Notes: generated from the letters alone by a model not told the origin. Shown: positions 1 through 11,716, counted from the first letter of the stretch. The stretch: DNA of 13,472 nucleotides from Promethearchaeota archaeon (GCA_048941015.1 JBHLNZ010000035.1:18294-31765), one strand, 5' to 3'. Made by a program: numbers and translations.

Positions 1-5
1 AAAAA

Positions 6-497
6 TTGAATAATGATGATAAAATTAAAGTAAAAAAAATTTTAGATGCATTTGAAAATGAAAATGGTAATACTATCTCATTACTTCAACAAATTCAAGA
101 ACAATATGGTTACTTACCTGAATATATATTAAACTATCTTTCCGAAGAACTAAAAATTCCAATCGCTAAGATCTATGGTATTGCTACCTTTTACTCGCAG
201 TTTTCTTTTACCGAAAAAGGAAAATATGTTATAACATGCTGTGATGGAACTGGATGTCATGTAAAAGGGACTCCTCTATTATTGGAATACCTCGAAAATC
301 AATTAAATATCAAATCTGGGCAAACTACAAAAGATAAAATGTTTACTCTAGAAGTTGTTAGGTGTTTGGGCTGTTGCGCAATTTCACCTGTATGTATTAT
401 TAATAACAAAATTTACGGGAATTTAAATATAAGAAAACTAGCAAAAATTCTTAAAAAATTAGAAAAAGAAGAAAAAATTAGCCTGAGCCCAAAATGA
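6..497 (+). CDS. nuoE: NuoE/HydC(BfuC)-like thioredoxin-fold [2Fe-2S] subunit
   Basis: Motifs LQQIQEQYGYLP, GIATFYSQF, C-DGTG-C and C-LGC-C give the Cx4C...Cx3C [2Fe-2S] ligands. TTG start at base 6; the true start could lie just upstream of the window. Its stop overlaps the next start (ATGA, 494-497). Confidence 0.93.
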   Translation: MNNDDKIKVKKILDAFENENGNTISLLQQIQEQYGYLPEYILNYLSEELKIPIAKIYGIATFYSQFSFTEKGKYVITCCDGTGCHVKGTPLLLEYLENQLNIKSGQTTKDKMFTLEVVRCLGCCAISPVCIINNKIYGNLNIRKLAKILKKLEKEEKISLSPK

Positions 498-2302
498 CCC
501 AAATTAAAAAAAGAGAAGTATTAATTTGTCGTGGCACCGGTTGTAATTCTCTTAATGCACAAGGAGTAAATGATAAATTAGAAGATTTAATTAAAAAATC
601 AAACTTACACGACTTTATACATATTAAGCGGACAGGGTGCCATGGTTTTTGCCAAATAGGGCCAACATTGATTATTAAGCCAGATAATGTAATCTATGTT
701 GTTCAACGACCTGAAGACATGGAAAATGTCGTTGAACAACATCTTAAGAGAGATACAGTAGTTAAAGAATTATTATATATTAATCCTGTTAATGGAAAAT
801 ATATTCAAAATAAGGATGACATCCAATTCTATAAAGCACAACAAAGAATAATAAGTGCAAATTGTGGTGAAATTGATCCTCAGGATATTGATGAGTATAT
901 TTCATTAGGTGGATATGATCTATTAAAAAAATGTTTAGTAGAATTGAACCCCCAGGAAGTAATTGAAGAGGTTAAAAAATCTCGATTGCGTGGGAGAGGT
1001 GGAGCTGGATTTCCAACAGGATTGAAGTGGTCATTCTGTGCTAGCGCTAAAGGCTCTCCAAAATATTTAATATGCAACGGTGATGAGGGAGACCCTGGTG
1101 CGTTTATGGATAGAGCCATTTTAGAAAGTGATCCACACTCTATCATTGAAGGCATGGCAATAGGCGCATATGCAATAGGCGCATCATATGGATATGTCTA
1201 TATTCGTGCTGAATACCCATTAGCCATTGAAAGATTTGAAATTGCATTAAAGCAAGCAAAAGAGAAAGGTTTCATAGGTAAGAATGCTAAAGGTATATTT
1301 AAAAAGCTAAAATTTGACATTGAATTACAAAAGGGTGCTGGTGCTTTTGTATGTGGTGAGGAAACTGCTTTAATGCAATCCATCATAGGAAAACGTGGTA
1401 ATCCTATGCCAAAACCACCCTATCCTGCTAACTCAGGATTATATGGTAAACCAACAAATATAAATAATGTAAAAACTTGGGCTAGTATTCCTAAGATCTT
1501 TGCAATGGGTGCAGACAATTACTCAGCTATAGGTTCAAAAGATGCTTCTGGCACAATTATTATAGCTCTTACAGGAAAAATAAATAACGGCGGTCTTGTT
1601 GAAATTCCAATGGGTACAACTATTAGAAAGCTGATTTTTGATATTGGAGGTGGAATTCCAGATAATAAAAAATTCAAGGCAATTCAAATTGGTGGTCCCT
1701 CGGGAGGTTGTATTCCGGCAGAATATTTAGACACTCCTATGGATTATTTGCATTTAACAGAATTGGGAGCGATTATGGGTTCTGGTGGGTTAATTGTTCT
1801 CGATGAAGATACATGTATGGTTGAATTGGCTCATTTCTTTATCAATTTTGCTCAAAAGGAATCATGTGGGAAATGTATTCCATGTAGAATTGGAACTAGA
1901 AAAATGCTACAAATTATTGAAAAAATTAAAGATGGACAAGGTACTTTAGAAGATCTTAAAAAATTAGAATCAATTGCCATTCTTGTAAAAAATGCTAGTC
2001 TCTGTGGTTTGGGACAAACCGCACCGAATCCGGTATTAACAACATTGAAATATTTTAGAGATGAGTATGAAGCACATATAAAAGGGATTTGTCCTGCTAA
2101 AGTTTGTAAAAACTTTATAGAATATAAAATTGTTGAAACAAAATGTACGTTATGTAATCTATGTGTAAAAAATTGTCCAGTACTTGCAATTGAGGGTAAA
2201 AATAATAAACCTCCTCGAATTAATTCCACAATTTGTACTAAATGTGGAGTATGTTTTAGCAATTGTCCTTCTAATTCAATTATCAAAATATCTAAAGGTT
2301 AA
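494..2302 (+). CDS. nuoF: NuoF/HydB(BfuB)-like FMN/NAD(H)-binding subunit, long bifurcating-type architecture
   Basis: N-terminal [2Fe-2S] domain (CRGTGC, GCHGFC). Core motifs GRGGAGFPTG, CNGDEGDPGAFMDR, GAGAFVCGEETAL, FKAIQIGGPSGG and ESCGKCIPCR...SLCGLG. Also HIKGICPAKVC and two C-terminal CxxCxxCxxxCP ferredoxin motifs. Confidence 0.95.
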   Translation: MTQIKKREVLICRGTGCNSLNAQGVNDKLEDLIKKSNLHDFIHIKRTGCHGFCQIGPTLIIKPDNVIYVVQRPEDMENVVEQHLKRDTVVKELLYINPVNGKYIQNKDDIQFYKAQQRIISANCGEIDPQDIDEYISLGGYDLLKKCLVELNPQEVIEEVKKSRLRGRGGAGFPTGLKWSFCASAKGSPKYLICNGDEGDPGAFMDRAILESDPHSIIEGMAIGAYAIGASYGYVYIRAEYPLAIERFEIALKQAKEKGFIGKNAKGIFKKLKFDIELQKGAGAFVCGEETALMQSIIGKRGNPMPKPPYPANSGLYGKPTNINNVKTWASIPKIFAMGADNYSAIGSKDASGTIIIALTGKINNGGLVEIPMGTTIRKLIFDIGGGIPDNKKFKAIQIGGPSGGCIPAEYLDTPMDYLHLTELGAIMGSGGLIVLDEDTCMVELAHFFINFAQKESCGKCIPCRIGTRKMLQIIEKIKDGQGTLEDLKKLESIAILVKNASLCGLGQTAPNPVLTTLKYFRDEYEAHIKGICPAKVCKNFIEYKIVETKCTLCNLCVKNCPVLAIEGKNNKPPRINSTICTKCGVCFSNCPSNSIIKISKG

Positions 2303-2307
2303 AAAAA

Positions 2308-5300
2308 ATGAGTAAAAAATTATCTTTTAAAATAGATAACAAAATTGTAGAGTTTTCAGAAGGTCAGACAATTTTACAAGTTGCTAAAAAAGCTGGAATT
2401 TATATTCCTACATTATGTTATATTGAAGATTTAAAACCGTATGGAGGTTGCCGATTATGCACCGTGAAAGTTGTTGGGGAAGGTAAACCACTAGTAACTG
2501 CTTGTTCTACCCCTGCTACCCAAAATATGGAAGTGATTACTAAGGATGATGAATTGCAAGATTTAAGAAAGGATATTTTGAAATTACTATTAAGTGAACA
2601 TCCCTCTTCGTGTTTAGTATGTGATCATAAAGATCAATGTGAGAATTTAAAGTATACGAAGAATAAATTTGGAAGGATGTTTGGCTGCTCTTCCTGTTCA
2701 AAAAAATTAACTTGTGAAATAAGAGAGATTGCTGATTATTTACAAATAGATGACATTCCATATGAACTTGAATATAGGAATTTGCCTCTTAAAAGAAATG
2801 AACCCTTTTTAGAAATAGATCCTAATATGTGTGTTTTATGTGGAAAATGCGTTAGGATTTGTAATGAATTGAGAGGGATTGGGGCAATCTCTCTCATAAA
2901 TCGAGGATATGATACCCAAGTTTCAACTGCCTTTGATAAATTACTTATAGATTCTAATTGTCAATTTTGTGGGGCATGTGTTGATATATGTCCTACGAGT
3001 GCATTATCCGTAATTAATTCAAAATGGGTAATAAATGTTGATGATATCGTAACTTCTACATGTGGGTTTTGTAGTGTAGGGTGTGGGTTTGATTATTATT
3101 CAGTAAGCGATAAAATAGTTAAATCAATTCCAAATAAGGATTGTGAAATTAATAAAGGACAATCATGTGTAATTGGAAGATTTTGTACAGTTCCATTCAT
3201 TAATGGGAAAGATAGGTTGAAATATCCATTAATAAGAAGGAATGGAGAATTAATTAATTGTAATTGGGATGAAGCTTATAATTCCATAATAGAAAATTTG
3301 AAAAAATATCGTCCAGATGAAATTGCTATATTAGCATCTCCTGATTTATCTAATGAATCCGCGTATGTTTTACATAAATTAGCACGCAAAATTGTAAAAA
3401 CTAATAATCTATTTACTAAAATCGATGGCAATTCAGTAGATATAATTAATGATTTATCGAAACAACTTTTCAATAAGGATTTTTATCCAGCATCATTTAG
3501 CACTATTGAAAATTCAGATCTAATTTTATTGATAAATGCAGATATTCAAAAAACGCATCCTATTTTATTGATAAACTTAAAAAAGGCAAAAGAAAATAAT
3601 GCAAAAATAATTTCTATAAACATTGGTGAATATAACTTACCATTTGAAACAGAAAGTTTGGTAGATATCAAAATAAATTTATCGATAGAAGGAATTAATG
3701 TCAAATTTTCAAGAGATTGGACTGAGCACCTTCATAATGATTCTAATCTAAATTTAAAAATTTCATCTAAAGATCTTAATCTCTTAATTTTACTATTAAA
3801 CAAGTATTTTTTAAAGCATGGAAAATATAAATCTGATCTCATTGAGAACTTCAAAGAATTTAACTTTTGGATTCAAAATCATGAAATTCTTGATGAGGAA
3901 AACAAGTTTGAGGAATTTTTTAATAGGATTTTAAATAATTGTTCAAATAATAAAATTACTATAATTTTAGGTCATTTAAATAAGATATCTAAAAATTATT
4001 TAAGAGATTTGATTGGAACAATCTTTAATTTGCGAATTCTCCTGAATAATAATTTAGATGTAATCCCATTATGGAATAGATCTAATATAGCTGGTGTGTT
4101 TCAAAATATATTTAATAATTCTATTGATTCTCAAGATAAAATTTTTAATGCAATTAGAGAAGGAAAAATCAAACTATTATATACAACTGAAAGAATTGAA
4201 AATATTGAATTGATAAAGTCAATCGAGTTTTTAATAATACAAGATATTTACCCTTCAGAAATGATGCAAATTGCTAATGTTGTTCTTCCAACTTGCACTT
4301 TTATAGAAAGTTCAGGATCTTTTATTAATTCTGAGCAAAAATTATTAACTTTTGAGAAGAGTACTTCAAATATTGGACAATCTCAACCAGATTGGAAAAT
4401 TTTCAGTGACTTAGCTAAAAAATTTGTTAACAATTTAAACATTAAGGATTTCGAATATTCAAATTCTAATGAAATTTTAAATGAATTGAAATTAAACAAT
4501 TTTCATTTTAAAGAACCCTCAACAATTAAAATGGATAACTCTTCTAACAAACTTAACTTATATATTCCTAGGTTAGAATTAGTTCCTTTAATCAATGAAA
4601 AACCATTTAAATTGAATGAATTCATATATCGTGGTGAAATGATTTCAGAGCAAGTTCCTGATCTTAGAAAACTAATAAAATATAGAAATATAAAGGAATC
4701 AAAAAAAGCAGTAAAAGTAAAACAAGAGAAATTACAAAAAACAAACTATAAGGTTAAATCAATTGAAGAAGTTGCTTTAAATATTTATAAAATTGTAATA
4801 AGCATACCATTTATACCTGCAAAGGCCAAACCAGGTAACTTTATTATATTAATGAAAGATGAAAAAAGTGAGAGGATTCCGTTAACATTATCAGATTGGA
4901 ATGTTGATGAAGGAACTATAACCGTATATGTACAAGATCGAGGTTTTTCTACTCAAGAGTTAACCAGATTAAAAAAAGGAGATTATATCTACAGTATTGT
5001 TGGACCGTTAGGTAACCCTATTGAAATTAAAAAGTATGGAACTGTATTATTAGCTGCTGGGTGTTATGGAATAGGAGCAATTTATCCAATTGCAAAAGCT
5101 TTGAAAGCAGCTGGAAATAAAATAATTATAGTTTTAGAAGCTAGAAATAAAAACTTTTTTTATTTAGAAAAAGAGTTTGAGGAAATTGCAAACAGAATTG
5201 AATATTTTACTTCCGATGGATCCAAGGGAGAAAAAGGAAAAATAAATCTTATTATTGAGAAATTATTCAACAAAATCTTTATAGATCAATGTTATTTTAT

Positions 5301-5616
5301 AGGTTGCAATCAAATGATGAAAGAAGCTTCAGATATAACAAAAACAAGTATTAAAATTCCAACTTTTGTAAGCTTGAATACAATAATGATAGATGGAACA
5401 GGATTATGTGGAGGATGTCGATTTACCTTAACTCAGGAAGGTAAAAAAATCACAAAATTTGCTTGTGTTGATGGACCGATTTTTGATGGTCATCTTGTTG
5501 ATTGGGACTTATTGATTGAAAGAGGTATTAACTATAGCGATTCTGAAATTGATGCATATAGAAGTCATAGATGTAAAGCATTAGAAAAATACGAATTTAA
5601 TGAAATTAATGATTGA
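2308..5616 (+). CDS. Fusion: NuoG/FdhA-like Fe-S scaffold with degenerate molybdopterin-oxidoreductase domain (aa ~1-810) + NfnA/SudB-like FAD/[2Fe-2S] domain (aa ~813-1102)
   Basis: Fe-S motifs: IPTLC...GGCRLC...TAC [2Fe-2S], HPSSCLVC His-ligated cluster, CVLCGKCVRIC, CQFCGACVDICP, and TCGFCSVGC...C. Mo-pterin fold motifs DRLKYPLIR, WDEAY, QDIYPSE, VVLP..FIE..GSFIN.E, PDWKI. C-terminal NfnA motifs AKPGNF, ERIPLT, GPLG, MIDGTGLCGGCR, CVDGPIFDGH. Confidence 0.9.
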   Translation: MSKKLSFKIDNKIVEFSEGQTILQVAKKAGIYIPTLCYIEDLKPYGGCRLCTVKVVGEGKPLVTACSTPATQNMEVITKDDELQDLRKDILKLLLSEHPSSCLVCDHKDQCENLKYTKNKFGRMFGCSSCSKKLTCEIREIADYLQIDDIPYELEYRNLPLKRNEPFLEIDPNMCVLCGKCVRICNELRGIGAISLINRGYDTQVSTAFDKLLIDSNCQFCGACVDICPTSALSVINSKWVINVDDIVTSTCGFCSVGCGFDYYSVSDKIVKSIPNKDCEINKGQSCVIGRFCTVPFINGKDRLKYPLIRRNGELINCNWDEAYNSIIENLKKYRPDEIAILASPDLSNESAYVLHKLARKIVKTNNLFTKIDGNSVDIINDLSKQLFNKDFYPASFSTIENSDLILLINADIQKTHPILLINLKKAKENNAKIISINIGEYNLPFETESLVDIKINLSIEGINVKFSRDWTEHLHNDSNLNLKISSKDLNLLILLLNKYFLKHGKYKSDLIENFKEFNFWIQNHEILDEENKFEEFFNRILNNCSNNKITIILGHLNKISKNYLRDLIGTIFNLRILLNNNLDVIPLWNRSNIAGVFQNIFNNSIDSQDKIFNAIREGKIKLLYTTERIENIELIKSIEFLIIQDIYPSEMMQIANVVLPTCTFIESSGSFINSEQKLLTFEKSTSNIGQSQPDWKIFSDLAKKFVNNLNIKDFEYSNSNEILNELKLNNFHFKEPSTIKMDNSSNKLNLYIPRLELVPLINEKPFKLNEFIYRGEMISEQVPDLRKLIKYRNIKESKKAVKVKQEKLQKTNYKVKSIEEVALNIYKIVISIPFIPAKAKPGNFIILMKDEKSERIPLTLSDWNVDEGTITVYVQDRGFSTQELTRLKKGDYIYSIVGPLGNPIEIKKYGTVLLAAGCYGIGAIYPIAKALKAAGNKIIIVLEARNKNFFYLEKEFEEIANRIEYFTSDGSKGEKGKINLIIEKLFNKIFIDQCYFIGCNQMMKEASDITKTSIKIPTFVSLNTIMIDGTGLCGGCRFTLTQEGKKITKFACVDGPIFDGHLVDWDLLIERGINYSDSEIDAYRSHRCKALEKYEFNEIND

Positions 5617-5658
5617 AGTTAAGGTAATTATAAATTAAATTGTAATTTTTAAGATAAA

Positions 5659-5663
5659 GAGGA
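5659..5663 (+). promoter_or_regulatory. Shine-Dalgarno-like site
   Basis: GAGGA ends 6 nt before the ATG at 5670, consistent with an internal cistron of an operon. Confidence 0.45.
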
Positions 5664-5669
5664 TTTTAA

Positions 5670-8402
5670 ATGGAAAAAAATACTCCTTTAATTGACATTT
5701 TACTTACAAATATGAATAAAATTCTAAAAATTGAAAAATATGATGAAATTAGAATTGAAAGTTTCATTAATTCATTAATAAAGGCAGAAAATGAAAGACA
5801 AAAGATTTTAAGAAAAATTAAGCAAATAAATAAAATAGATCTCCAACAATTAAAAAGTGAATTAGGAATACCTGAAAGAACTTTAATATATAATATTGAA
5901 TATTTAAAAGAATTGGGAAATTTAGAATTCATCGGAGAAAAATCTTTATTCTCTCAGGAAATTAAAGAAAAAAGTAAGAGTGAAGGGATTTTTCCTGATG
6001 TTTCAATTATCAGAGATGACCTTATATGTTGTGGATGCGGTTTATGTCAATCAATCTGTCCAGTAAATGCAATAGAATTTTTTGATGAAACATTTGAAAT
6101 CGATGAAGAAACATGTATTAATTGTGGGTTATGCTACGCTTGTTGTCCTCGATCATTCTATCCAAAGGAATTAAAAAGATCACTGGAAGAGAAACCAAAT
6201 GGTCTTAAATATTTAGAGCAATTAAATTATTATCGAGATATATGTAGAGCGCGAACTAAAGATCCTCATCTTAAAGAAGTCACTCAAGATGGAGGAGTTG
6301 TAACTTCATTACTTCTTGCTGCTTTTCGGATGAATCTAATTGATGCTGCTTTAGCCGTAGGCATATCAGATAAACCTCTAAAACCTTTTCCACTTATAGT
6401 CTCAAAAGAAGATGATTTACTACAAACAGCTGGAACGAAATATAGTAATTGTCCATCACTAAAAATATTAGATGATGCTTACAATTATAAAAATATTGCA
6501 GTTGTTGGCACTCCATGTATGATGGAATCTCTCCAAAAAATTTCTTTTTATCCTTTAAATAAGCCTTTATTTGATAATATAACTTTAAAAATTGGATTAT
6601 TTTGTATGGAATCATTTGATTATAACAAATTAATTGATTTTATAAAGACAGAGTTTTATAAAAATCCTGAAGAAGTTAAAAAGATGGATATAAATAAAGG
6701 GAGGATTTACATTTTTGATAAGCAAAATAAAATGTTTGACATTCCTTTAAAAAGAATTAAAAAGTATGGTAGGTTTGGATGCTTTATGTGTGATGACCTA
6801 ACTGCTGAACAAGCAGACATTTCTATAGGATCTATTGGTTCGGATTTCGGCTGGTCAACTGTGATTATAAGGACTGAAAAAGGAGCTAAACTATTTGAAA
6901 AAGCATTGAATATTAATATGATCGAAAAAGAAGAAATTAAAGAGGATAGTAAAAGCTTTCATTTGATTCGTACGATTTCTGATTCAAAAAAGAAAAAATA
7001 TTTAGAAATTCAACGCCAAAAGATGATTGAACAATTTCCTAATGATAGAATAAAAAACTTTAAAGAAGTACCAAAAGGTTATACAACTGAAATAGCTTTG
7101 TTAGAAAGCTCCAGATGCTTACAATGTGGTAATCCGTTATGCATTACTGGGTGTCCAGTAAATATTGACATTCCTGAATTTATTCGGTTAATAAGAAAAG
7201 AAAGATTTCGCGAAGCTGCACAAAAAATTTTGGAAACAAACTCTCTTCCTGCTGTATGTGGAAGAGTATGTCCTCAAGAAAATCAATGTGAAGGAGAATG
7301 TCTTCTAGGTAAAAGATTTAAACCTATTTCTATCGGTAATTTAGAACGATTTGTAGCTGATTTTGAGAGAAATAATAGAAGTTTTTTTATTCAAAAGAAA
7401 GAAGTTATAAAAAATATAAAGGTGGCAATATTAGGAAGTGGTCCAGCAAGTCTTACTGTTGCAGGCGATTTGGTAAAACTAGGATATGATGTTACTATTT
7501 ATGAAGCATTCCATAAAGGTGGTGGTGTTTTAGCTTACGGAATTCCTGAATTTCGCTTGCCAAAAAATATTGTAGATTCTGAAATTGAATATATTAAATC
7601 ATTAGGTGTTAATATCGAATACAATGTGATTATTGGAAAAACTTTAACGATTGATGATTTAAAAGCAATGGGATATGAGGTTATTTTCATTGGAATTGGA
7701 GCAGGTTTACCAATATTTTTAGGTATACCTGGAGAAAATTTAAAAGGTATTATTTCAGCTAACGAGTTTTTAACTAGAGCAAATTTAATGAAAGCGTACC
7801 GATTTCCAAATTATAATACACCTATTAGAATTGGGAAAAAAGTAATTGTTGTTGGAGGTGGAAATGTAGCATTAGATTCCGCAAGAACTGCCTTAAGGCT
7901 AGGTGCCGAAAAAGTTATAATAATTTATAGAAGATCTGAGGTTGAGATGCCAGCCAGGAGAGAAGAATACCATCATGCTTTAGAAGAAGGAATAGAATTT
8001 CAGTTTTTAACAAACCCAATAAGATTCATTGGAGATCATAATGGTAATGTTAAAGAAATAGAAGTTGTAAAAATGAGATTAGGAGATCTCGATCAATCAG
8101 GACGTAGAAGACCTATTCCTATTGAAAATTCAGAATATTTTATCGATGCTGATACAATTATAGTTGCGCTGGGTACTAAAGCAAACCCAATTCTTACAAG
8201 GTCAATTCCAGATTTAAATTTGAATAAATGGGGATATATTGAGACCGATGAAGATGGGCAAACTAATTTAGAAGGTATTTTTGCTGGAGGTGATATAGTG
8301 ACCGGTAGTGCGACAGTTATTTCGGCAATGGGAGCCGGAAAAAAAGCAGCAGTGGCAATTGATAAATATATCAAAAAAAAGTATAAGGAAAAAAATAAGT
8401 GA
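5670..8402 (+). CDS. Fusion: putative winged-HTH + 2x[4Fe-4S] + FrhB/FdhB F420-binding domain (aa ~120-445) + NfnB/SudA (GltD-like) NADP(H)-dependent flavoprotein (aa ~449-910)
   Basis: Ferredoxin motifs CCGCGLCQSICP and CINCGLCYACCP. FrhB motifs QDGGVVTSLL, AGTKY, VGTPC, IGLFCMESF, GC..C.D....ADIS.GS.GS..GWSTVIIRT.KG. NfnB motifs NFKEV, RCLQC...C..GCPV.IDIP, CGRVCPQENQCE, GSGPA, YGIPEFRLPK, GGGNVALD, YRR, AGGDIVTGSATVISAMGAG. Confidence 0.92.
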   Translation: MEKNTPLIDILLTNMNKILKIEKYDEIRIESFINSLIKAENERQKILRKIKQINKIDLQQLKSELGIPERTLIYNIEYLKELGNLEFIGEKSLFSQEIKEKSKSEGIFPDVSIIRDDLICCGCGLCQSICPVNAIEFFDETFEIDEETCINCGLCYACCPRSFYPKELKRSLEEKPNGLKYLEQLNYYRDICRARTKDPHLKEVTQDGGVVTSLLLAAFRMNLIDAALAVGISDKPLKPFPLIVSKEDDLLQTAGTKYSNCPSLKILDDAYNYKNIAVVGTPCMMESLQKISFYPLNKPLFDNITLKIGLFCMESFDYNKLIDFIKTEFYKNPEEVKKMDINKGRIYIFDKQNKMFDIPLKRIKKYGRFGCFMCDDLTAEQADISIGSIGSDFGWSTVIIRTEKGAKLFEKALNINMIEKEEIKEDSKSFHLIRTISDSKKKKYLEIQRQKMIEQFPNDRIKNFKEVPKGYTTEIALLESSRCLQCGNPLCITGCPVNIDIPEFIRLIRKERFREAAQKILETNSLPAVCGRVCPQENQCEGECLLGKRFKPISIGNLERFVADFERNNRSFFIQKKEVIKNIKVAILGSGPASLTVAGDLVKLGYDVTIYEAFHKGGGVLAYGIPEFRLPKNIVDSEIEYIKSLGVNIEYNVIIGKTLTIDDLKAMGYEVIFIGIGAGLPIFLGIPGENLKGIISANEFLTRANLMKAYRFPNYNTPIRIGKKVIVVGGGNVALDSARTALRLGAEKVIIIYRRSEVEMPARREEYHHALEEGIEFQFLTNPIRFIGDHNGNVKEIEVVKMRLGDLDQSGRRRPIPIENSEYFIDADTIIVALGTKANPILTRSIPDLNLNKWGYIETDEDGQTNLEGIFAGGDIVTGSATVISAMGAGKKAAVAIDKYIKKKYKEKNK

Positions 8403-8561: not shown

Positions 8562-9686
8562 ATGACTCAAGAATATAGTATAACTGCTAAACTTGGTCCT
8601 TCTATTGGAAGTTCTATTCGAAATTGGATGAAGTTAGTTACTAGCAGTGGCTTTGTGGATTTAAAATATTATCCACGAGTATTTCTAGTAGATTTCATTA
8701 GTGCTATCGGAATTCCTTTTCGCATTTATGAAAATTTAAGATTTAATGATAAAATATATTCAACAGATTTGAAAGTTCCACCTTTATTTATTTTAGGCCA
8801 TTGGAGAAGCGGAACAACTCATATCCATAATTTGATGTGTCAGGATCCTCAATTTGGCTATATTACTATGCTAAACGCCGCATTTCCTAAGTCTTTTATA
8901 AGTAACAATTTTTTTAAATGGATTATGAAAAAATTAATGCCCAAGAAAAGACCAATGGATAACATGGAGATGGGAATTAATAATGCACAAGAAGAAGAAA
9001 TGGCCCTAGGAAATTTATTTCCATATTCCTTTTACAATGCATTTTACTTTCCACGAAGATTAATAGAATTTTATCATAAATATGTTCGATTTGAAAATAT
9101 ATCAAAAAAAATTAAAAAACAATGGAAGAAAGTTTATTATTTTCTACTCAAGAAAGCTACATTATATATGAACGGAAAAAGACTCGTATTAAAAAACCCA
9201 GCAAATACAGCTCGAATTAAATATCTTTTAGAAATGTTTCCAGATGCTAAATTCATTCATATATACAGAAATCCGTATGATGTCTACGGTTCCACCCAAA
9301 TACTTTACCAAAAAATGATGAGAGCATTTATGCTTCAAAAAATCTCAGATAAAGCTTTAGAAGAAGACATCTTTAGAGTTTATAGAGAAATGATGAGGAC
9401 TTACTTTGAAGAGAAAAAATTAATTCCTAAAGGTAATTTAGTGGAAATTAAATTTGAAGACTTAGAAATTAAACCTCTCGATCAATTAGATAAAATCTAT
9501 TCTGCTTTAAATTTAACAGGTTTTGAAGACGCAATCCAATATTTTAAAACCTATCTTAAAACTTTAATCAACTATAAGAAAAATAAATTTGAATTAGATA
9601 ATCAAACAATTGAAAAAATATCAAAAAATTGGAAATTCACTATTGATAAATGGGGCTATGAGGTTCCTAGATTTAATTTAAGTTAG
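8562..9686 (+). CDS. PAPS-dependent sulfotransferase (Sulfotransfer_3 / Stf3-like family)
   Basis: 5'-PSB loop FILGHWRSGTTHIHNL, RPMDNM...QEEE, LKNP.NTAR, and 3'-PB motif HIYRNPY.V..S. Confidence 0.9.
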   Translation: MTQEYSITAKLGPSIGSSIRNWMKLVTSSGFVDLKYYPRVFLVDFISAIGIPFRIYENLRFNDKIYSTDLKVPPLFILGHWRSGTTHIHNLMCQDPQFGYITMLNAAFPKSFISNNFFKWIMKKLMPKKRPMDNMEMGINNAQEEEMALGNLFPYSFYNAFYFPRRLIEFYHKYVRFENISKKIKKQWKKVYYFLLKKATLYMNGKRLVLKNPANTARIKYLLEMFPDAKFIHIYRNPYDVYGSTQILYQKMMRAFMLQKISDKALEEDIFRVYREMMRTYFEEKKLIPKGNLVEIKFEDLEIKPLDQLDKIYSALNLTGFEDAIQYFKTYLKTLINYKKNKFELDNQTIEKISKNWKFTIDKWGYEVPRFNLS

Positions 9687-9784
9687 TTTGAATCTACTTC
9701 TTTATCTCACCAACTTATATTTTTAAGCAAATGTAGCTGCAATTTTTACTTTTAAAGAATAATATTAAAATTATAATATTCTTT

Positions 9785-10648
9785 TTATTTTGGAATTCCT
9801 ATTGGACAAATTTTTAAACAATATGAACAATAATTTTTATCTATTAAAGCTTCTATGCATTTAGAACGATTGATATATGTGATTATTCCCGATTCTTTTT
9901 TTATAGGATCTTTATAAACAGCCCCTCCTAAACAGTTTTTTACACATGAACCACAATTATTGCAAAAATCTTCCAATTCATCAAAGTTTCGTTTTGATCT
10001 TATAGGAATATTCGCATCAGTAGTAATCATGCTCCATCTTTGTCTTGGTCCAAATTCAGGTGTGATTGTAAGTCCACTTCTACCTAAAATTCCTAATCCC
10101 GCTTCAACAACATGTGGTCCATATAATAATTTACCTCCGAAGGGATGATGTGCTTCACTTTTATACCCTTGATCCTTTAAATATTCAGTTAATTCGATAG
10201 TAACATCACCTAATACTTTATATACTCTAAATACTTCTATTTGACAATTCGCACTTGGAGCTGTTTCGATGCCATTAAGCCATTTCATTTCCATACCCAG
10301 AATAATTCCATTTTTCCCATACACTTTTAGATCTTTAAAAATATAATTCTCATTAACTGGAACATACCCTATAAAGTCTACGTCAAGCTGTTTTGCTCTC
10401 TCTTCAAACATATCCCAAAAGCCTGCAGATACTTCTTCTTTAATATTCCTTTCATTCCCATATTTAGTTTTTCGTGCTTGGTCGAATCCTTTAAAAGTTC
10501 CTCTCATATATTTACTAAAAATTTTTGCTGTTTCGCGATCGATTACTTCTGGAGGACCCGCACTCATAGAGAAAAGTTCTTTCGGAATGATAAAGACCAA
10601 ATTTTCATTTTTACCAATATATGTTGGTTTAATACCTACATCAGACAT
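9785..10648 (-). CDS. Reductive dehalogenase/QueG-superfamily cobalamin- and 2x[4Fe-4S]-binding protein, paralog 1
   Basis: AGLG..GR.GL.ITPEFGPRQR...ITTD, FCxxCxxCxxxC and Cx9CxxCxxxCP. No Tat signal. The substrate cannot be determined from sequence. Confidence 0.8.
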   Translation of the reverse strand: MSDVGIKPTYIGKNENLVFIIPKELFSMSAGPPEVIDRETAKIFSKYMRGTFKGFDQARKTKYGNERNIKEEVSAGFWDMFEERAKQLDVDFIGYVPVNENYIFKDLKVYGKNGIILGMEMKWLNGIETAPSANCQIEVFRVYKVLGDVTIELTEYLKDQGYKSEAHHPFGGKLLYGPHVVEAGLGILGRSGLTITPEFGPRQRWSMITTDANIPIRSKRNFDELEDFCNNCGSCVKNCLGGAVYKDPIKKESGIITYINRSKCIEALIDKNYCSYCLKICPIGIPK

Positions 10649-10669
10649 ATAAATTCTATTTATTTACTT

Positions 10670-10693
10670 AAATAAAAAAATTTTTACTTTTGT
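10670..10693 (-). promoter_or_regulatory. Conserved upstream element (putative BRE/TATA promoter) of paralog 1
   Basis: Minus-strand ACAAAAGTAAAAATTTTTTTATTT at -45..-22 from the ATG; 23/24 identical to the copy at 11738-11761. Confidence 0.65.
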
Positions 10694-10772
10694 GTATATA
10701 TAATAGAAAGAGCAATACTTTAATGTTGGAAACTTATTTTCTTACAGACTCCATTCTAATTTAGGAAATGGC

Positions 10773-10847
10773 AAAATAAAAAAAAATTGGAAATTTACTA
10801 TTGAGAAGTGTAGCTATAAAGTATCAAAATTAAAAAATGCATTTTAA
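10773..10847 (+). pseudogene. Remnant of a second sulfotransferase copy (3' end only)
   Basis: 10781-10817 matches 9623-9659 at 32/37 nt. It translates KIKKNWKFTIEKCSYKVSKLKNAF* versus KISKNWKFTIDKWGYEVPRFNLS* in the intact gene. No ATG occurs in frame after the stops at 10701-10706. Confidence 0.75.
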
Positions 10848-11716
10848 TTTTTTACCCCATGAGGGCATACTTTTAAGCAATTAGAACAATAATTATTATT
10901 AATCAAACTTTCAATACATTTCGCACGGTCAATATGTGTTATCACACCAGAATCTTTGATTTTTTCAATAGGTTTTTCTAATGCTGCTCCTCCAAGACAA
11001 TTTTTGATACAAACACCACATTCCTCACAGAATTTTTTCATTTCACTAAAATCTCTTTCTTTTGTTTCAGGAATTTCAGCATCAGTTGTAATTACACTCC
11101 ATCTTTGTCTTGGTCCAAATTCAGGAGTAATGACAAGACCATTACGTCCCATAAATCCTAACTTTGCAGCAACTGCATGGGCAGTAAATAAAAGTTTCCC
11201 TCCAAAGGGATGATGAGCTTCGCTTTTATAGCCTTGGTTTTGTAAAAATTCAGTTAATTTTATTGTTCTTTCACCCAATTCATAGTAAACTCGAAATGCT
11301 TCCAGTCCACAATAAACACTGGGAGCAGTCTTAATCATATCCCATTTCATTTCCATACCAAGAATAATAGCATTTTTTCCTACGATAGGAAGATCTTTAA
11401 AGATATAATTCTCTAATACCGGAGTATAGCCAATAAGATCAATTCCATTATCCTTAACTAAATTTTCAAAATTATTCCAGAATTCGGGGCTTGTTTTAGT
11501 TCTTGTATTCGTTTCCTTATTATTATATTTTGTTTTATTAGCAACATCAAATCCTTTAAATGTTCCTCTTAAATATTTACTGAATTCTTTTGCTGTTGTG
11601 GGGTCTAACTTTTGTTCTGATGATAATTTCATTGTAAAAAGCTTTGTTGGAACAATAAAAACTAAATTCTCGTTTTTGCCAATATAAGTAGGCTTGACTT
11701 TCTTTTTAGCTTCCAT
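10844..11716 (-). CDS. Reductive dehalogenase/QueG-superfamily cobalamin- and 2x[4Fe-4S]-binding protein, paralog 2
   Basis: Same motifs as paralog 1 (LGFMGRNGLVITPEFGPRQRWSVITTD, FCEECGVCIKNC, CIESLINNNYCSNCLKVCP). Colinear with paralog 1, roughly 60% aa identity by eye. Confidence 0.8.
   Translation of the reverse strand: MEAKKKVKPTYIGKNENLVFIVPTKLFTMKLSSEQKLDPTTAKEFSKYLRGTFKGFDVANKTKYNNKETNTRTKTSPEFWNNFENLVKDNGIDLIGYTPVLENYIFKDLPIVGKNAIILGMEMKWDMIKTAPSVYCGLEAFRVYYELGERTIKLTEFLQNQGYKSEAHHPFGGKLLFTAHAVAAKLGFMGRNGLVITPEFGPRQRWSVITTDAEIPETKERDFSEMKKFCEECGVCIKNCLGGAALEKPIEKIKDSGVITHIDRAKCIESLINNNYCSNCLKVCPHGVKN

Follow-up and report, generated by a model that had tools for sequence, protein, structure and literature searches.

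An FrhB::NfnB fusion in Loki-type Asgard archaea as a candidate F420-linked form of the NfnAB transhydrogenase

We analysed a stretch of 13,472 nucleotides (nt) from a Promethearchaeota archaeon (GCA_048941015.1, JBHLNZ010000035.1:18294-31765; hereafter the window), which forms the final 13.5 kb of a 31.8-kb contig in a 3.59 Mb, 95% complete assembly of a Loki-type Asgard archaeon, and which encodes a protein that joins an FrhB-type module to a complete NfnB, the large subunit of the NfnAB-type bifurcating transhydrogenase. The fused gene is a single open reading frame (ORF; 5670-8402, + strand, 910 amino acids (aa)) without internal stop, and encodes in order a helix-turn-helix (HTH)-like domain, a 2x[4Fe-4S] ferredoxin domain, FrhB, a short connector and full NfnB. 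It is the fourth gene of a tightly packed operon (intergenic gaps of -4, 5 and 53 nt), which starts 22 nt 5' of the window (ATG of the first gene at contig position C85:18272) and is divergent from genes for an aldehyde:ferredoxin oxidoreductase (AOR) and a polyferredoxin. An earlier interpretation of the window, made without database searches (hereafter the sequence-only reading), had recognised an FrhB::NfnB fusion with intact motifs, and every motif it quoted does lie in this one uninterrupted ORF; its start at 6027 is, however, the first ferredoxin cysteine, so that the true start at 5670 and a conserved 110-aa N-terminal domain had been missed.

That N-terminal domain (aa 1-110) is helical, has no significant family match and is kept in all fused homologues, with only weak or non-significant matches to HTH domains (Pfam CggR_N, E 9e-4; Foldseek, E at least 0.46); it is also present in a stand-alone FrhB paralogue on contig C131 (phmmer to C131_501, 4.5e-6). 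It is followed by two CxxCxxCxxxCP motifs at aa 113-168, identified with Pfam and NCBIfam, and by the FrhB part at aa 184-444, of which aa 193-425 are covered by FrhB_N (PF04422, 66 bits, cut-off 22) and FrhB_C (PF04432, 141 bits, cut-off 23). The Fe-S ligand cysteines and the flavin and nucleotide motifs of the fused protein are invariant or nearly so in an alignment of 60 homologues, which underlies all statements on residue conservation made here. Fully invariant are the eight ferredoxin-domain ligands (C120/123/126/130 and C149/152/155/159) and C283, C312, C371 and C374 of FrhB, together with Q206 and G208 of the QDGG motif (G209 nearly so), Y258 of the GTKY motif (G255, T256 and K257 nearly so) and most positions of the GSxGS..GWSTV motif.

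The complete NfnB occupies aa 457-904, with Fer4_20 (PF14691, 145 bits) and Pyr_redox_2 covering aa 460-890, and scores 583.3 bits with the NfnB/'gltA' model TIGR01316 (cut-off 471.75). It matches NfnB of T. maritima (4YLF_B) with 590 bits and 56% identity in the structural alignment, and NfnI-L of P. furiosus (5JCA_L) with 525 bits, while structural comparison with Foldseek and VIA-align gave TM 0.87 and Z 40.6. Its two [4Fe-4S] motifs (C483/486/491/495 and C530/534/540/544) are invariant except for C530, which is nearly so, and the FAD site GSGPAS (GSGPA at 589), IPEFRLP at 625, the NADPH site GGGNVALD (GGGNVA at 729) and YRR at 753 are all present. In the structures from T. maritima and P. 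furiosus, the [4Fe-4S] pair of NfnB serves as the ferredoxin branch. The junction between both halves differs from the Lys-rich linker (ISDSKKKKYLEIQ) proposed in the sequence-only reading: this segment is located at aa 436-448, contains the invariant residues K440 and K442, and matches in the alignment the C-terminal end of the solved FrhB structure (3ZFS_C/4OMF), and since it is mostly the conserved FrhB C-terminal helix and residue 6 of T. maritima NfnB aligns already at aa 450, the true connector comprises only ~5-15 residues. The AlphaFold2 (AF2) model predicts coil at aa 440-456 (pLDDT ~77-87), and has a pLDDT of 81 and a pTM of 0.79 for the whole 910-aa chain.

Both by sequence and by predicted fold, the half containing the ferredoxin domain and FrhB has its nearest counterpart in the zeta subunit of the F420-reducing carbon monoxide dehydrogenase (CODH) of Ca. 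Ethanoperedens thermophilum, which docks at the place of ferredoxin and thereby lets a ferredoxin-type CODH reduce F420, an activity that has been measured (PMC11493965). Sequence scores were 188 bits for zeta (8RIU_B, E 2e-54), 172-178 bits for FrhB, 133-145 bits for Fsr (E 1e-40) and 31 bits for HCAR (E 1e-6), and the ferredoxin domain aligns to those of 8RIU_B and Fsr. Superposition of the AF2 model with VIA-align gave Z 41.4 for zeta (8RIU_E; 353/370 residues, root-mean-square deviation 3.5 A, ferredoxin domain included), Z 36.9 for 8RJA_K, Z 34.0 for Fsr (7NP8_A) and Z 32.7 for 9R51_B. The architecture of ferredoxin domain plus FrhB is the same as in zeta and in the FrhB-like subunit of the F420-reducing formylmethanofuran dehydrogenase (Fwd; 8RIU, 8RJA; PMC11493965), where an F420 reductase module is grafted onto a normally ferredoxin-using enzyme, as is predicted here. 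In those systems, for which alone F420 activity is proven, the module is a separate subunit on CODH or Fwd, whereas in the window it has an extra N-terminal domain and is covalently fused to NfnB, so that the partner is a bifurcating flavoenzyme and not a CO2-forming metalloenzyme. Similarly, Fsr of the Methanococcales (7NP8, 7NPA), with an F420 site described as a positively charged cleft, carries a ferredoxin domain, FrhB and a catalytic domain in one polypeptide, although its C-terminal partner is a sulfite reductase and its electron relay runs via a second protomer (PMC10229431).

The fusion is not an assembly artefact and recurs far beyond chance. A clustered protein database contained ~95 protein clusters of fused or fragmentary relatives with 53-81% identity, most of them full length, and the named relatives all come from Asgard metagenome-assembled genomes (MAGs) assigned to Promethearchaeota, Lokiarchaeota or Hermodarchaeota. 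Logan contigs from independent studies span the FrhB/NfnB junction (X1, 6593-7265; X5, 6450-7267) as well as the boundary between the end of nfnA and the start of the fusion (X5, 5040-6400; X10, 5389-5871). Among 1.84 billion representatives at 50% identity the fused architecture was restricted to one representative and a fragment, with the rest of the top-150 matches covering the NfnB half only; ten long representatives of these were scanned and had ferredoxin, polyferredoxin or NfnA extensions, with FrhB in none. Within 301 genomes of the phylum, full-length matches were confined to the window's own family, where a close NfnB orthologue was found in 85/101 genomes: the fused form in ~45, only free NfnB (~470 aa) in ~31, and genes interrupted by contig ends in the remainder. 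The fused protein is annotated publicly as 'NADPH-dependent glutamate synthase' or 'F420 hydrogenase beta subunit, partial', and no description of an FrhB::NfnB fusion was found in the open-access papers and preprints searched; each part of the system belongs to a known family (NfnB, NfnA, FrhB, BfuB/C/A-like), and it is their combinations which are undescribed in the open literature searched.

Only a single genome (G138) holds fused and free NfnB together, and hence the fused gene replaces the ordinary NfnB and is not an addition to it. Several family genomes hold two fused copies, one such pair being in tandem: at locus L030 (G279:C211:58000-77999), two frhB::nfnB genes, separated by 52 nt, follow a single nfnA, and another NfnB-like gene lies at a greater distance. 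The NfnB-domain tree contains a main fused clade (99/99), with the window's genome (G000) and its relative G099 apart in a polytomy and G195 grouping with the free forms, a topology which may reflect either one or several origins of the fusion, with losses or exchange. Database forms of 626-635 aa from several independent MAGs (P0095, P0096, P0098, P0099) begin at the position corresponding to aa 276, halfway into FrhB; these are probably truncated gene calls or split genes, and an upstream in-frame stop may be another option. TAG recoding was considered for three homologues in genus g4 and rejected, as the in-frame TAG is simply the stop codon of the gene, with another stop after it. The loop before the FAD site was likewise considered as a possible mark of the fusion and rejected, as its CPxC motif is found in fused and free NfnB nearly family-wide; it has been lost in the window's own protein (aa 566-583, about nt 7365-7420).

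Upstream of the fused gene, the sequence-only reading had not extended to the neighbouring genes, where NfnA is found directly upstream of the fusion, here as part of a NuoG-like subunit of a NuoE/NuoF module (Table 1); since NfnA is fused to a subunit of a Bfu-type module, the overall reaction is likely to be changed. The NfnA domain (aa 814-1091 of the 1102-aa protein) ends 53 nt 5' of the fused gene, scores 299 bits with NF004862 (cut-off 220), 222 bits with NfnA 4YLF_A and 210 bits with 5JCA_S, and consists of a FAD domain, an NAD-type fold and a [2Fe-2S] part, with the FAD and [2Fe-2S] motifs kept. Its Gly-rich nucleotide motif reads AAGCYGIGA (5053-5079), with GGGCYGIGA or close variants in the other NuoG-fused NfnA and mostly GGGVGIAP in the free NfnA homologues from related genomes; this is a hint that NuoF may take care of NAD(H) in the NuoG-fused lineage, and that NfnA of the Bfu-linked lineage may bind NAD(H) differently or no longer. 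The NuoF-like protein has an N-terminal [2Fe-2S]-like part, an FMN/NADH domain, a [4Fe-4S] site and a C-terminal 2x[4Fe-4S] part, and its best full-length PDB matches are all bifurcating BfuB/HydB proteins (657-788 bits, versus 397 bits for Nqo1 of complex I), with top scores of 788 bits for 7T2R_B, 734 for HydB 7Q4V_B and 706 for T. sibiricus NfnABC 9N5U_B. The NuoG-like scaffold (PF13510, PF10588, PF22117, PF04879, PF00384; PDB matches 6TG9_A, 9BOV_A, 8OH5_C and 7T2R_A) has [2Fe-2S], NuoG-type and 2x[4Fe-4S] motifs, Molybdop_Fe4S4 and a molybdopterin-fold domain, and Pfam searches found no PF01568, i.e. no C-terminal pterin-dinucleotide domain. Taken together, the BfuB with its extra N-terminal [2Fe-2S]-type and C-terminal 2x[4Fe-4S] parts, the NuoE-like BfuC and the NuoG/HydA-like BfuA have the architecture of a Bfu core, and by these sequence features the NuoE-, NuoF- and NuoG-like proteins are a Bfu-type core.

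Table 1. Coordinates of the operon genes and of the domains of the fused protein, in window positions
Feature	Position	Strand	Evidence
NuoE/HoxE/BfuC-like [2Fe-2S] subunit, first gene of the operon	1..497	+	PF01257 163 bits; NF005722 NuoE 143.8 bits, cut-off 141
NuoF-like subunit of bifurcating BfuB/HydB type, 602 aa	494..2302	+	Pfam; best PDB matches
NuoG/FdhA/BfuA-like Fe-S scaffold, N-terminal 813 aa of 1102-aa protein	2308..4746	+	Pfam, PDB
NfnA-like domain, C-terminal part of NuoG-like 1102-aa protein	4747..5616	+	NF004862; 4YLF_A; 5JCA_S
N-terminal 110-aa helical HTH-like domain of fused protein	5670..5999	+	AF2 pLDDT 83; weak HTH matches
2x[4Fe-4S] ferredoxin domain of fused protein	6006..6173	+	Pfam Fer4 families; invariant ligand columns
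FrhB-type flavin/[4Fe-4S] domain, putative F420 oxidoreductase	6219..7001	+	PF04422, PF04432; PDB sequence and structure matches
Connector, FrhB C-terminal helix to NfnB N-terminus, aa 445-456	7002..7037	+	Domain ends in alignments; AF2 coil
Complete NfnB (NfnL) domain	7038..8402	+	TIGR01316; 4YLF_B; 5JCA_L; structural alignment

Every other fused locus which was fetched has a free nfnA (~300 aa) directly upstream and no NuoEFG, while the arrangement NuoE-NuoF-NuoG~NfnA followed by free NfnB recurs in other genera and families, and in more distant families NuoG-like, NfnA and NfnB are encoded by separate neighbouring genes. Only the window's genome and G099 (82% identical) combine the NuoG~NfnA/Bfu and FrhB add-ons. 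Within the same genus, G204 has the AOR and polyferredoxin genes divergent from a plain nfnA and the fusion, and as this is the same flank with a plain nfnA, the layout in the window looks like an exchange of nfnA cassettes at a conserved locus.

When compared with known systems, the operon shares with NfnAB a full C-terminal 455-aa NfnB with both [4Fe-4S] motifs and FAD and NADPH sites, and an NfnA with [2Fe-2S] ligands directly upstream; it differs from NfnAB by the 450-aa N-terminal HTH-like/2x[4Fe-4S]/FrhB extension, and by the fusion of NfnA to a NuoG-like protein and its AAGCYGIGA motif. As in the Nfn-Bfu enzymes StnABC of Sporomusa ovata (8OH5) and NfnABC of C. saccharolyticus and T. 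sibiricus (9BOV, 9N5U; PMC10482914, PMC11829005, PMC12018979), NuoE-, NuoF- and NuoG/HydA-like proteins are combined with an NADPH-binding NfnB-type module. However, StnABC and NfnABC carry the NfnB-like domain inside BfuA and are without NfnA, whereas the window has a BfuA~NfnA fusion, with NfnB as a chain of its own that additionally bears an FrhB module, and therefore the system is not Nfn-Bfu as defined. The F420-Bfu predicted for the Methanosaetaceae (Schut et al. 2022, PMC9304861) is also similar in having a Bfu core with an F420-reducing FAD domain and F420 as mid-potential third substrate, but it is a prediction only, from a different lineage, with its F420 domain placed in BfuA and without Nfn subunits. 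A bifurcating complex reported in 2017, as it is cited in PMC6085437 and PMC8498797, likewise has F420(H2) as a substrate of flavin-based bifurcation; according to these citations it is a member of a different enzyme family in which F420H2 is the bifurcated donor, and not a partner at the ferredoxin branch. The fused protein is unrelated to Fno (npdG-type).

With regard to the presence of F420 itself, which the sequence-only reading had proposed to check through the biosynthetic genes, the genome encodes CofG (391 bits), CofH (469 bits), CofD (315 bits) and a CofE/FbiB-like two-domain protein (289 bits), all over curated cut-offs, so that the proposal of an F420 partner is upheld on this point, and it also encodes the F420-dependent Mtd (357 bits). 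CofE is over cut-off in 100/101 family genomes, and hence a comparison of F420 biosynthesis with the presence of the fusion cannot discriminate between them. Fno (TIGR01915) had no match in this 95% complete genome and none over cut-off in the 101 family genomes, which means that a known link between F420 and NADP is missing.

The genome contains eight FrhB-family genes, the fused one included. One of these, in a cluster on contig C131 (C131:6300-13300; L054:2301-9300, - strand), encodes the stand-alone 501-aa protein with the same N-terminal domain, 2x[4Fe-4S] and FrhB; the neighbours in this cluster are another FrhB (370 aa), an HdrB-like CCG protein and a double HdrA (1028 aa), and together they are a candidate F420-linked Hdr-like complex. 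The 501-aa protein is likely to represent the donor type of the fused N-terminal module, which is itself older than the fusion. A 498-aa protein encoded on C137 also has ferredoxin and FrhB parts, with an N-terminal extension of uncertain homology. On contig C27 (C27:1301-3133, - strand; L056), a 610-aa protein has FrhB_N/FrhB_C fused to a PyrK/NfnA-like FAD/[2Fe-2S] domain (DHODB_Fe-S_bind), and thus, together with frhB::nfnB, a single organism has FrhB fusions with each of the two types of Nfn subunit. Another FrhB paralogue, on contig C134 (L057:4557-6008, + strand), has a C-terminal TrmB-type winged-helix domain (PF01978, E 8.5e-7, with no stretch passing singly), so HTH-type domains recur on FrhB modules of this genome, in this protein and at the N-terminus of the fused one. 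Finally, contig C84 (C84:4799-9763, + strand; L060) encodes a 1654-aa protein consisting of an HdrA-like part, an NfnB-like insertion (Fer4_20 and Pyr_redox_2), a further HdrA-like part and MvhD, which resembles the HdrA-NfnB fusions of ANME-1 (PMC9012536).

From sequence, predicted structure and analogy, we give an even chance to the reading that the 910-aa protein is the NfnB of an NfnAB-type bifurcating transhydrogenase with an N-terminal F420 port wired to the NfnB [4Fe-4S] clusters, and a fusion of this kind would probably link the pools of NADPH, NADH and F420. Here we infer F420 binding, electron transfer between module and NfnB, association with the Bfu core and the direction of flux. 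NfnB would have gained a pre-existing three-part port, consisting of the HTH-like domain, the 2x[4Fe-4S] ferredoxin domain and an FrhB with [4Fe-4S] and FAD, and electrons would move between F420, the FrhB FAD, the FrhB [4Fe-4S] cluster, the two ferredoxin-domain clusters and the [4Fe-4S] pair of NfnB, which as the ferredoxin branch would exchange with the bifurcating FAD and NADPH, with a second branch via the [2Fe-2S] cluster and FAD of NfnA. In the common two-gene form with free NfnA, the coupling would be between NADP(H), NAD(H) and F420(H2), F420 either standing at the place of ferredoxin or sharing it, and the enzyme would supply an F420/NADP link in genomes that use the F420-dependent Mtd and have no Fno over cut-off. 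For the window's genome and its nearest relative, the Bfu core would provide further sites, for NADH and for free ferredoxin, and the four-gene product could connect the four pools of ferredoxin, NADH, NADPH and F420. F420-Bfu and Nfn-Bfu were predicted separately by Schut et al. (PMC9304861), and by analogy F420 and NADP+ are, with a Bfu core, well-matched mid-potential partners of NADH and ferredoxin. A more far-reaching version is tentative and less likely than not: the genes at 1-8402 would form one soluble supercomplex in which bifurcation at the Bfu NuoF site and at the NfnB FAD occurs in series, with the F420 port on the Nfn ferredoxin branch, equilibrating ferredoxin, NADH, NADPH and F420, while in the simpler form of NfnA plus fusion F420 would replace ferredoxin as partner of the bifurcating flavin and stand in for Fno.

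Several observations weigh against an F420 port on the bifurcating enzyme. The ferredoxin-branch clusters of Nfn are very low-potential, and therefore a flow of F420H2 into this branch would be uphill unless the potentials are retuned. With an E0' of about -340 to -360 mV (PMC9304861), F420 is approximately isopotential with NAD(P)H, so that a bifurcating flavin is not needed to reduce it in the form consisting of NfnA and the fusion. Weak Fno-like genes (64-97 bits; mostly in g2, also in g7, g72 and one g1 genome) are present in genomes with fused as well as with free NfnB, without a pattern. The FrhB domain scores under the equivalog cut-offs for FrhB (TIGR03289, 233 bits versus 331.5; PRK09325, 255 bits versus 269), and by this classification it is a family paralogue and not the beta subunit of an F420-reducing [NiFe] hydrogenase; FpoF model NF040616 matches aa 114-444 with 141.7 bits, again under its curated cut-off. 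Non-F420 members exist in the FrhB family, among them ferredoxin-reacting enzymes of chlorophyll metabolism, and the non-F420 relative HCAR (5DQR) still superposes on the AF2 model in VIA-align with Z 29.9. The FrhB-like domain may thus not use F420 but serve as a flavin/[4Fe-4S] relay or have another partner (ferredoxin or another substrate), in which case the fusion would extend the Fe-S chain of Nfn or form a built-in ferredoxin, in line with the plain ferredoxin/polyferredoxin N-terminal extensions, without FrhB, on NfnB of other lineages (P0135, P0161, P0232). We consider this unlikely, since the similarity to proven F420 enzymes (133-188 bits) is far above that to HCAR, F420 is made by the genome and its biosynthesis is retained throughout nearly the whole family, and the eight FrhB-family genes, which lack the context of an F420 hydrogenase large subunit, suggest F420 as a general carrier in the host.

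A further difficulty for the F420 port is found in the 100%-complete genome G040 (L063, G040:C36:374000-380000, gene at ~2472-5036), in which an in-frame deletion of ~55 aa in FrhB_C and a change of QDGG to QDWE leave NfnB intact, and since FrhB is decayed there, the F420 module appears to be dispensable to NfnB, at least in G040. Such tolerance would fit a Rosetta-stone fusion without internal wiring, brought together for co-expression or co-localisation, in which the module serves another partner or acts as an FpoF-type ferredoxin:F420 oxidoreductase and free ferredoxin stays the partner of Nfn; the occurrence of the same module as a free protein beside the Hdr-like genes and the partial match to the FpoF model would fit this as well, and because the relay in Fsr needs a second protomer (PMC10229431), geometry in cis is not to be assumed. 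The very short connector and the conserved junction, a whole-chain pTM suggestive of a fixed arrangement, and the near mutual exclusion of fused and free NfnB all argue in the other direction, as do the zeta and Fsr precedents, where such ferredoxin domains bridge to the distal cluster of the partner (PMC11493965, PMC10229431), and we judge a fusion without wiring to be quite improbable. Least credible, and very improbable in our view, is that the C-terminal half is not from Nfn and feeds electrons, as a GltD-type subunit, into another enzyme (e.g. an F420-dependent glutamate synthase or another reductase): GltD and NfnB do share a fold (6S6S, Z 37.4), and the database names refer to glutamate synthase, but the best matches are NfnB of T. 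maritima and NfnI of P. furiosus, with only 282 bits for GltD, and NfnA, as a gene or as a domain, is the neighbour at each locus examined, with a GltB-like large subunit at none.

In anaerobes, Nfn acts as the central valve that connects the pools of NADH, NADPH and ferredoxin, and in the archaeal C1 pathway hydride is carried by F420. The conserved fusion is a concrete, testable candidate for the loading and unloading of F420 in Loki-type Asgard archaea. If F420 is truly served by a bifurcating flavin, this would widen the substrate range of electron bifurcation and extend its modular logic. The four forms, free NfnAB, Bfu-linked NfnAB, FrhB-fused NfnAB and the combination of both in the window, make up a modular series which can be seen as a natural experiment in complex assembly by gene fusion and cassette exchange, in a lineage that is relevant to metabolic models of the archaeal relatives of eukaryotes.

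The 3' flank of the operon (window 8562-11716) carries a sulfotransferase-family gene together with a pair of short, paralogous genes similar to reductive dehalogenases on the opposite strand, the latter two scoring 59 and 84 bits with TIGR02486, under its cut-off. In many relatives, nfnAB is flanked by glutamate dehydrogenase genes, whether the NfnB is fused or free (L024, L027, L031-L033, L039, L041 and others), and several fused loci have a 331-aa Mpt_N-domain gene directly 5' of nfnA (e.g. L026:12036-13031), Mpt_N being defined in Pfam as the N-terminal domain of methylene-tetrahydromethanopterin dehydrogenase, while AOR flanks the loci of genus g1. These glutamate dehydrogenase, Mpt_N and AOR neighbours fit a role in distributing NADPH-borne electrons.

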